Shown: in pieces, positions 61,095 through 64,000 of the stretch
How the letters are laid out: the number at the start of each line of letters is the position of its first letter
How positions within the stretch are numbered: position 1 is the first letter of the stretch
Assembly: GCA_049513715.1 (NCBI GenBank)
Contig: JBEKVV010000001.1
Span: 512,001 to 576,000, forward strand
Length of the DNA: 64,000 bases
Direction: 5' to 3'
Source: Candidatus Bathyarchaeia archaeon
GTDB lineage: Archaea; Thermoproteota; Bathyarchaeia; 40CM-2-53-6
Translations under genes and position numbers: made by a program
Notes under the pieces: model-generated
What the model saw: the letters and a program-made list of their open reading frames with translations, nothing else
Database searches by the model: none
Told to the model about the DNA's origin: nothing

Positions 61095-61240
61095 ACTTGG
61101 ATTCGAAGAATCAATTACAACGAGCGATATTTCAGCGTTCGTTCACTTTTCTTGACACGACCCTGACCTCCTTCTCAATTCATGACGGACGAGCGACGTG
61201 TTAGCTGGGCTGTCTAACTCAAACAGGAGGCGTCTTCCAA

Positions 61241-61333
61241 TGGTGCAGGCACCAGAATTTGAACTCTGATTATGTGTGTGGGTCTGGTGGTGCGAGCTTC
61301 GTAATTTGAACAGTCGTTTTTGTGTGGGTTGGG
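61241..61333 (-). repeat. Two tandem ~46-47-bp units each containing a decayed tRNA 3' end (tRNA-linked repeat / att scars)
   Basis: Plus-strand units at 61241 and 61288 begin TGGTGCR-N9-ATTTGAAC, in register with the tRNA end TGGTGCG-N9-ATTCGGAC at 61334. Confidence 0.7.
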
Positions 61334-61508
61334 TGGTGCGGCCGCCGGGATTCGGACCCGGGTTTCCTCGCTGCGTTCGTGCAGCTTTGAGGCTTGGGAA
61401 GCCCCCGTCATAGACCAGGTTGCCCTTCCACCGCTTTCTCGGTGGGAACTGGACCACGGCCCAGCGGAGTATCCCTCTCGCGCTCACAAGGCCAGCCACG
61501 ACGACCGC
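61334..61508 (-). tRNA. tRNA-Gly(CCC) with multiple non-canonical BHB introns, encoded CCA
   Basis: Removing 61456-61500, 61420-61448 and 61364-61386 yields a 78-nt cloverleaf GCGGTCG TG GTCC AGCCTGGTCT ATGAC G GGGGC TTCCCAA GCCTC AAAC CCGGG TCCGAAT CCCGG CGGCCGC ACCA. Confidence 0.9.
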
Positions 61509-62289: not shown

Positions 62290-63003
62290 TTATGTTAGTA
62301 CGATCTCCATGCGTCTGTTGATTCTACCCTTGTTGTCGGTTTTGACTACTTTGATGCTCTGAATCTCTTTCGTGTTCGCAACGTGTGTTCCGCCGTCGGC
62401 TTGGAAGTCCACGCCTTCTATGTCCACAACACGAACTTCGGTGATCTCCGGGGGCAGAAGGTTGATTTTAGTTCTGATTAGGTCAGGTTGCCTCATCGCC
62501 TCGTCGCGGGGAAGGAATCTGATAGAAATTGGATGAGCTTCCTGAACGACTCTGTTGCAGGCGGTTTCGATCTCCCGGACTCTGTCTGGGTTGATTTCCT
62601 GCAAGTCGAAGTCCATTCTCGCGCGGTCCAAGTAGATCTGCCCGCCCGTAACTAGGCCCCCGTACATGTGATACACGAGACCGCAAAGAACATGCAGCGC
62701 TGAGTGGTAACGCATGAAAGTGTAGCGCCTGTTCCAATCAACGGAGCCATGAACAGAAGTGCCTTCGGGTGGTGGCGGTCCCTTCAATTTGTGAAGAACG
62801 GTTCCTGTTTTCTTTGAGACGTCCACAACTTGTGCTTCTCCGGCTGCCCAGCTGATGGTTCCCGTGTCGTTGGGTTGGCCTCCTCCCGTTGGGTAGAATG
62901 CGGTTCCGTCCAAAACAACCGCGTCAGTCTCTGCTTTCGCGACACTGGTGTCGAACTCGCGCAAGTAGTGGTCTTTCAAGTAGAGCAGTTCTGTCATTGT
63001 CAA
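62290..63003 (-). CDS. alaX: AlaX alanyl-tRNA editing protein
   Basis: FYPTGGGQPNDTG, MRYHSALH, QADGGTHV. Confidence 0.92.
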   Translation of the reverse strand: MTMTELLYLKDHYLREFDTSVAKAETDAVVLDGTAFYPTGGGQPNDTGTISWAAGEAQVVDVSKKTGTVLHKLKGPPPPEGTSVHGSVDWNRRYTFMRYHSALHVLCGLVYHMYGGLVTGGQIYLDRARMDFDLQEINPDRVREIETACNRVVQEAHPISIRFLPRDEAMRQPDLIRTKINLLPPEITEVRVVDIEGVDFQADGGTHVANTKEIQSIKVVKTDNKGRINRRMEIVLT

Positions 63004-63578: not shown

Positions 63579-64000
63579 CTAGGCCTCCATGAAGTCTTCC
63601 GCCTTTTGCGGCTCAGGTGACAGGCCTTTGCGCTTCCGAATGTCAGTGATCACTTGCATGAGCAGCGATTGAGGCACCGGTTGCCAATGTGAAAATTCGA
63701 GCCCCCAGAACGCTCTACCCTGTGAAGCGCCGCGCATCACTTCTGAAAGGTCGAACGTTTCTGCTGTGGGAAGTTCTCCGACAACATATACTAGGTGGCC
63801 GCGTTGGTCTACTGAAACGATTTTTCCGCGTTTCTGCGAGATTACACTGGTTGCTGCCCCGAGGAGTTCTGGTGGAACCTTGACGGTTATCCTCTGAACG
63901 GGCTCTAAGAGGACGGGGTTGGCGTTGAGGAAAGCGACGAAGAAGGCCCTGCGGCTCATGGGCATAATTTGGGCCGGGCCCCTGTGGACGGGGTCTTCGT
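63579..64000 (-). CDS. fusA: Elongation factor EF-2, C-terminal part (truncated by window edge)
   Basis: EDPVHRGPAQIMP diphthamide loop, LLEP, domain V (RG..GRAFW..EF). Confidence 0.93.
   Translation of the reverse strand, partial: EDPVHRGPAQIMPMSRRAFFVAFLNANPVLLEPVQRITVKVPPELLGAATSVISQKRGKIVSVDQRGHLVYVVGELPTAETFDLSEVMRGASQGRAFWGLEFSHWQPVPQSLLMQVITDIRKRKGLSPEPQKAEDFMEA

Follow-up and report, generated by a model that had tools for sequence, protein, structure and literature searches.

A tRNA-Gly(CCC) gene of Bathyarchaeia, probably interrupted by three bulge-helix-bulge introns and preceded by a leader that may assist its splicing

The locus considered here raises the question of which of two copies of an acceptor strand begins the mature tRNA, and of what the other copy does. 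The window, a stretch of 64,000 nucleotides from the genome of a Candidatus Bathyarchaeia archaeon, carries on its minus strand the single tRNA-Gly(CCC) gene of that genome, 175 nt long and running from 61508 to 61334 (coordinates are those of the window, and all parts of the gene lie on this strand). On the raw window ARAGORN called no tRNA gene, and Rfam RF00005 gives a weak match (21.5 bits) on the 3' part of the gene. A first-pass annotation proposed that a 78-nt tRNA emerges once bulge-helix-bulge (BHB) introns are removed at positions 45/46, 15/16 and 8/9, the last holding an inner 18-nt intron of its own, so that four splices are needed; it also mentioned another parse, with an intron at 3/4 behind a leader of ~27 nt. 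ARAGORN does call a 78-nt tRNA-Gly(CCC), CCC anticodon included, on the form spliced in silico, and does so under both parses, so folding cannot choose between them. Since the two products differ at position 5 alone, the decision needs comparison with relatives.

Such relatives were sought at two levels. A DNA search of 41 related genomes gave a long match in 19 of the 23 genomes of the genus, the window's own included, and genomes and metagenomes together gave at least 173 matches, at least 124 of them distinct. The distinct matches listed comprise 48 with an intron of the 18-nt type, 73 from sister genera with an uninterrupted 5' end, and three that were set aside, namely a similar gene with its 3' end cut off (L016), one with its 5' part replaced (L019) and one without upstream DNA (L137). 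Many of the 48 homologues are close kin, and counts drawn from them are related and not independent. The parser demanded an upstream copy of the acceptor strand and the scan pattern included G4-G15; both features were rechecked on sets found without them. The D-arm pattern occurs in 33 genome records, of which 25 are labelled Bathyarchaeota or Bathyarchaeia, three carry other archaeal MAG names and five are labelled bacterial; these five, which hold an archaeal tRNA pattern (L153, L155, L163, L177, L182), are probably mis-binned, contaminated or filed under mis-named or outdated titles. The search of viral contigs gave no match to the gene. Among the loci set aside, L019 (genome G003) keeps the 3' end of the 3/4 intron and has lost exon 1, leader and promoter, which makes it either a broken gene or a mis-assembly.

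Three introns are common to both parses, and their helices are present in the sequence as the first-pass annotation had drawn them. The 45/46 intron (23 nt, 61386-61364) has the central helix CCTC/GAGG and a 5-bp intron stem, the 15/16 intron (29 nt, 61448-61420) has GTCC/GGGC with a 6-bp stem on its intron side, and the 18-nt intron (61478-61461), which we place at 3/4, has an HBh' motif with AGCG/CGCT and a 3-bp intron stem. Between and behind them lie exon 2 (G4-G15, U8 included; 61460-61449), exon 3 (positions 16-45, 61419-61387, with the anticodon CCC at 61398-61396) and exon 4 (61363-61334), which provides the T arm with C at 55, the acceptor 3' strand, A73 and an encoded CCA (61336-61334). 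This C in place of the U at T-loop position 55 (61355) is shared by 40 of 45 homologues, and several other tRNAs of the genome have it too. There is no intron at 37/38, as had already been noted.

In the window gene each of the three introns has a 4-bp central helix, fully paired, between 3-nt bulges. The introns are kept in 46-48 of the listed homologues, and all four central pairs form in 48/48 at 3/4, in 48/48 at 15/16 and in 37/46 at 45/46, where the other nine have one mismatch. Shuffled partners equalled full pairing of the 3/4 central helix in 1/1000 trials; at 15/16 this shuffle is uninformative because one strand is invariant exon. The helix of the 18-nt intron has changed on both strands across homologues (AGTG/CACT in 23, AGTG/CGCT in 11, AGTG/CATT in 9, AGCG/CGCT in 4 and AATG/CATT in 1), which fits its removal as an intron in its own right. 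The covariation that the first-pass annotation had looked to in relatives is strong in the intron-side stems at 15/16 and 45/46 (0/1000 shuffles each), where the proposed introns stand, and weak in the stem at 3/4 (95/1000). Intron-side bulge bases vary freely at the three introns (5, 7 and 8 types among listed homologues) and the exon-side base is nearly fixed, which together mark the cut sites. A BHB is described as requiring two or more contiguous pairs in at least one of its outer helices (accessible text of bioRxiv 10.64898/2026.10.13.758758), and the outer helices at 3/4 (three pairs) and 45/46 (five pairs) satisfy this rule; the 15/16 intron has one pair on each side, then a mismatch, then its 6-bp stem.

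The machinery that such introns would call for is represented in the genome. Two EndA subunit genes were found, on contig C1 at 841.6 kb and on contig C4 at 134.8 kb; one scores above and the other below the endA cut-off, with beta-subunit matches, and the two-subunit type of the enzyme has been linked to non-canonical introns in the accessible text of earlier work (PMC4090602, PMC3241643). By eye, the catalytic subunit carries a Lys/Pro-rich insert; a specificity loop for non-canonical sites has been described for the EndA of A. pernix (PMC3241643, accessible text). The RNase P RNA gene is also present.

Taken from its sequence, the gene appears to be a real, functional-looking three-intron tRNA gene. 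It is very improbable that it is a pseudogene or an unspliced relic with GGG codons read by tRNA-Gly(UCC), even though a Gly(UCC) gene is present in the genome, the BHB at 3/4 is not the favoured fold in our model and L019 lacks its 5' part. Across 45 full-length homologues, variation touches only 9 of the 78 mature positions (the search pattern having fixed part of the 5' region), whereas the introns vary with compensatory stems; moreover, promoter spacing is conserved and the gene is single-copy.

The two parses part company at the 5' end. In the nested reading 61508-61501 serves as exon 1; excision of the 18-nt intron comes first, an 8/9 BHB then forms around an outer intron (61500-61456), and a fourth splice yields a tRNA with a U5-G68 pair. 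In the 3/4 parse, exon 1 is G1-C2-G3 (61481-61479), the putative outer intron is read as leader, exon 1, intron 1 and G4-U8, and the product has seven Watson-Crick acceptor pairs followed by U8. Several features speak for nesting. Once the inner splice is made, the window has a complete 8/9 motif, and U8, a full outer central helix and at least three intron-side pairs coincide in 22 of the 48 listed homologues, the window gene included, the central helix being possible in 48/48; the 22 are scattered over deep branches. Introns at 8/9 exist elsewhere in the genome (Leu-CAG, Cys, Asn), and most predicted states show the upstream strand bound to the acceptor 3' strand. In an EF-2 tree of 18 genomes (backbone support 24-53), T8 followed by C (CGTG, CGCG, CTCG) sits on several deep branches, and this state may therefore be ancestral.

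Against this, the base that follows the upstream copy, position 8 of the nested model, is T in 30, A in 14 and C in 4 of the 48 listed homologues (T in 12 and A in 6 of 18 genus genomes), so the U8 that nesting needs is not conserved. The copy itself occurs as variants in 35, 11, 1 and 1 homologues, one of them with A7. As U8 is described as universal save for an edited C8 in Methanopyrus (PMC3695527, accessible text), A8 or C8 in 18/48 disfavours the upstream copy as exon 1. The downstream copy behaves differently: G4-G15 is unchanged in 18/18 BLAST matches listed for the genus and in 17/17 matches from a pattern without G4-G15, and this copy equals the uninterrupted 5' start of the 73 listed sister-clade genes, in none of which (0/73) the upstream copy is found. 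At family level, 17 of 19 loci have the strand uninterrupted and without an upstream copy, and the other two were not assessable. The 15/16 intron is common to the sister genera (L020 and others), which carry an anticodon-loop intron in place of that at 45/46, differ in the anticodon stem and have no 3/4 intron; two gains and one loss separate the Gly-CCC gene of the genus from theirs. No intron-less allele occurs among 17 genome matches.

The outer 8/9 BHB, with its helix GGTC/GGCC, does appear only once the 18-nt intron is removed, as the first-pass annotation had observed; however, this helix offers no independent evidence for ordered nested splicing, because GGCC is self-complementary and pairs with any copy of itself. 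The outer intron-side stem has 0-1 pair in 20/48 homologues, and the bases that nesting would make a free intron bulge are invariant, compared with 5-8 types at the three real introns. Energetically, the nested helix in the thrice-spliced intermediate costs a median of 20.2 kcal/mol vs 4.7 kcal/mol for the true acceptor stem and is costlier in 45/45; in the window gene the secondary-structure model gives 16.6 vs 5.6 kcal/mol. The nested BHB has a probability of <0.001 in all modelled states, and a search of the genome found no gene beginning with the nested product.

The position of the promoter had been taken to favour G61508 as the mature 5' end. A BRE-like stretch and a TATA box (61549-61533, with TTTTATT at 61539-61533; function inferred) precede the gene, a T-run/A box stands 24-27 nt from the upstream G in 48/48 listed homologues, and T occupies position -1 in 48/48. 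The A of the TATA box lies 28-30 nt from the true G1 in 64 of the 73 listed sister-clade genes and mostly 29-33 nt from it in the other tRNAs of this genome. This spacing does not discriminate between the parses: in the Asn and Glu genes of the genome an upstream copy that cannot be exon 1 likewise lies 30-31 nt from the TATA box. The spacing points, on sequence grounds, to transcription starting at the upstream G and not to a mature end, and the start is probably at or near G61508.

We therefore hold with considerable confidence that the gene has introns at 3/4, 15/16 and 45/46 behind a 27-nt leader, which makes the alternative mentioned in the first-pass annotation the better one. Other junctions between the two copies were tried by hand (3/4 long, 4/5, 5/6, 6/7, 7/8), and only 5/6 yields a 4-bp helix; it was rejected, having no intron-side stem and needing bases upstream of the probable start. 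A larger exon 1, with a GGCTGG/CCAG helix as BHB, was also rejected by hand because it leaves no D stem, and a leader-trailer BHB of the kind known from permuted tRNAs was rejected because the trailers are unrelated among homologues. The nested four-splice route, whether as the main or as a parallel route in lineages with U8, is quite unlikely, and what looked like a fourth, nested intron is more likely a leader with a spare strand. We give an equally small chance to a mixed history, in which the leader of U8 lineages, this genome included, is also a true outer intron. The precursor would then have two ways to completion, RNase P cleavage once three introns are out, or removal by EndA, in a fourth splice, of an intron that had held another, giving two alternative 5' exons, and spare-strand leaders would be a stage derived from nested 8/9 introns.

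What, then, does the leader do? It spans 61508-61482 (23-28 nt in homologues), and three parts of it can be told apart. The first is the spare copy of the acceptor 5' strand (GCGGTCG, 61508-61502), which pairs with the 3' acceptor strand (61344-61338) through one G-U, with a pairing probability of 0.97 in the full precursor. Among the listed homologues it keeps 7/7 pairs in 47/48, with one G-U pair in 46/48, while the adjoining spacer varies in length and sequence. The second is a conserved element, GGCTGG(CC) at 61497-61490, whose complement CCAG|CC spans the junction of the 15/16 splice, so that the element's GGCUGG makes 6/6 Watson-Crick pairs with the D-arm in 42/48 homologues after 15/16 splicing and in 0/48 before. 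The third, 61485-61482, contributes to the central helix of the 3/4 BHB, where it makes three of the four pairs, and also forms a closing G-C5 pair. By this geometry, with those three pairs coming from bases upstream of G1, the 3/4 intron needs a leader.

Modelling treats these parts unequally. When GGCUGG is shuffled, the cost of the 3/4 BHB rises in 41/45 precursors and, once the 15/16 intron is removed, in 43/45 (medians of 1.4 and 2.6 kcal/mol), which suggests that 15/16 is spliced before 3/4; 45/46 appears independent. The Gly spare strand differs from shuffled copies by a median of -0.03 kcal/mol and is lower in 29/45, almost no modelled help; in the window gene it is lower than 9/20 shuffles in the precursor and than 1/20 once the other introns are out. 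The window precursor does not favour the 3/4 BHB as its fold (probability 0.001, at a cost of 7.2 kcal/mol). Even when all three introns have been spliced, the leader-bound fold remains more stable than the true acceptor stem, by a median of 4.7 kcal/mol in a model that has no tertiary contacts, so release of the leader would need tertiary folding or proteins.

A wider view comes from a census of the genome that takes BHB introns into account: of 57 CCA-ending anchors it parsed 31, with weak parses (score under 44) and a duplicate Val parse dropped. Of the 26 anchors left over, 11 show a single acceptor 5' strand (one probably a chance match); the other 15 show no such strand and are probably chance matches or fragments. 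A number of CCA anchors in the genome consist of a tRNA 3' fragment that lacks its 5' half. The parsed genes hold no intron in one case, one in six, two in 14, three in six and four in four. The four-intron genes are Leu-CAG (contig C5, 220321-220120, minus strand), Glu-CTC (C2, 230817-230964, plus), Met-CAT (C1, 172880-172732, minus) and Gln-CTG (C1, 789791-789950, plus), some of their junctions resting on relaxed 3-of-4 helices. A further Lys-TTT-like gene (C4, 148380-148571), outside the parsed set, shows four introns by eye. Four splices in one tRNA, which had been thought exceptional, are therefore not so in this genome, nor in Asgard archaea, for which up to five intervening sequences per tRNA gene are reported in the accessible text of a preprint (bioRxiv 10.64898/2026.10.13.758758).

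Five parsed genes have an intron at or before 10/11, namely Gly-CCC at 3/4, Leu-CAG, Cys-GCA (C1, 747087, minus strand) and Asn-GTT (C2, 195178, minus) at 8/9, and Glu-CTC at 10/11. An upstream copy of the acceptor strand scoring at least 9 accompanies 5/5 of these acceptor-proximal introns vs 0/26 of the other genes (best 8); the threshold was set after seeing the genes, Leu stands at it, and shuffled upstream regions reach it in 5%. The copies form 6-7 bp and lie 12-27 nt upstream of the tRNA (12-22 nt in Cys, Asn, Glu and Leu). In Cys, Asn and Glu the base behind the copy is C, A and G, respectively, so these three cannot be exon 1. Among the genus loci listed, the copy is kept in 18/18 for Asn and 19/19 for Glu, with variable spacers. 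This rule of the genome also bears on nesting: the 8/9 intron of the nested model would have no spare strand of its own upstream of 61508, where the window scores 3. In a Glu-CTC locus of another genome of the genus (L258, G022) the spare strand is kept and the 10/11 intron is absent, and in another (L260, G016) the D-arm intron is absent; read from the sequences, both loci hint at introns precisely lost or gained within the genus.

The modelled help from the spare strand is clear in Cys and Glu, partial in Asn and none in Leu. A different account of the copy is to be weighed, in which the gene has its three introns, that at 3/4 included, and the copy survives as a relic, left by an old 8/9 intron or by a duplication at the insertion of an intron or element, or is kept for another reason such as 3'-end protection or delayed end trimming until splicing is over, and not for BHB formation. 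That the Gly copy does little for BHB formation in the model fits this, as do the Glu locus that has the copy without the 10/11 intron and the place of the copy, where G1 usually sits relative to a TATA box. We nevertheless consider it unlikely, since a relic does not readily agree with pairing kept at 7/7 beside a varying spacer or with the coupling of copies to acceptor-proximal introns, and since in Glu, Cys and Asn the BHB becomes 2.6-8.8 kcal/mol more costly when A7 stands in for the copy. That the leader acts as a folding helper for splicing is the side to which we lean, with some reserve.

The best explanation of the locus, and one we think likely as a whole, is a gene with three BHB introns at 3/4, 15/16 and 45/46 and a structured helper leader of 27 nt. 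The processing steps that follow are ones we infer from the sequence, its conservation and its complementarity. The two-subunit EndA would remove the three introns, the exons being religated, and RNase P would take the leader last. While the real strand is in pieces, the spare strand is predicted to occupy the 3' acceptor strand, perhaps as its purpose, and the last leader bases would build the 3/4 central helix with the intron. GGCUGG, pairing fully with the D-arm only after 15/16 removal, would lengthen the exon-side helix under the 3/4 BHB. Once the 3/4 exons are joined, the 7-bp real strand would displace the wobble-containing copy, and the RNase P cut would trap the cloverleaf.

Parts of this scheme have counterparts in known systems, described here from the accessible text of the sources cited. 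Thermoproteales tRNAs have multiple non-canonical BHB introns, up to three per gene (Sugahara 2007, 2008, as cited in PMC4090602, PMC4033280), 3/4 introns among them (PMC4090602), and the present gene resembles theirs in its BHB/HBh' motifs, in positions 45/46 and 3/4, both of which are listed, and in the two-subunit EndA (PMC4090602, PMC4033280). In contrast, the host here belongs to the Bathyarchaeia, with soil and peat relatives, and its Gly gene has no canonical intron; its conserved leader of 23-28 nt, with a spare strand and a junction-reading element, finds no mention for Thermoproteales in the accessible text of PMC4090602 and PMC4033280. Asgard tRNAs are likewise mostly split, with several introns per gene and many D-arm introns missed by annotators, but they belong to another lineage, and the words 'nested', 'leader' and 'Bathy' are absent from the main text of the preprint (bioRxiv 10.64898/2026.10.13.758758). 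Archaeal 'nested' multi-intron pre-tRNAs, in which the last BHB forms only once the other introns are out (Sugahara 2007, Tocchini-Valentini 2009, as cited in PMC3978253, PMC3728597), share with the Gly gene an ordered splicing through structure made by an earlier splice, predicted here as 15/16 before 3/4; however, the dependence in the Gly gene would run through a leader helix and not through overlapping BHBs, an intron within an intron being the disfavoured reading. The split and permuted tRNAs of Nanoarchaeum, Caldivirga and Cyanidioschyzon have complementary leaders and trailers (PMC4090602, PMC4033280, PMC3978253), so that there too a BHB arises through pairing of sequence that the mature tRNA does not contain, whereas the Gly case is in cis on one transcript, with a leader that mimics an exon strand and whose removal is predicted to be by RNase P, not EndA. 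Among the literature titles and abstracts searched, with most subscription papers outside reach, none dealt with an acceptor-strand copy in a leader or with an archaeal tRNA of four introns.

Introns in the acceptor stem or next to it pose a folding problem, as the strand that forms the splice signal is also needed for the most stable helix of the tRNA. In the Gly gene the leader contains a further element, which appears to read the junction left by an earlier splice. Should this be confirmed, tRNA leaders would serve as built-in chaperones of folding that place splicing ahead of 5' trimming, and the persistence of introns at 3/4-10/11 would be easier to explain. For annotators there is a warning in that a spare copy mimics exon 1. 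With four-intron tRNAs, the Bathyarchaeia would join the Asgard archaea above the maximum of three given for Thermoproteales in the accessible sources. We consider two features worth following, the conserved leader with its two elements and the way in which spare strands accompany acceptor-proximal introns across the genome.

Some observations concern the surroundings of the gene. Overlapping ORFs of 180 and 100 aa were treated as chance frames. Upstream of the tRNA, on the same strand, lie the gene for an AlaXM editing protein (62290-63003) and the 3' end of that for EF-2 (63579-64000), and tRNA and EF-2 share one contig in most genomes of the genus. Just behind the tRNA 3' end, at 61210-61330, short stretches recur elsewhere in the genome and in related genomes.
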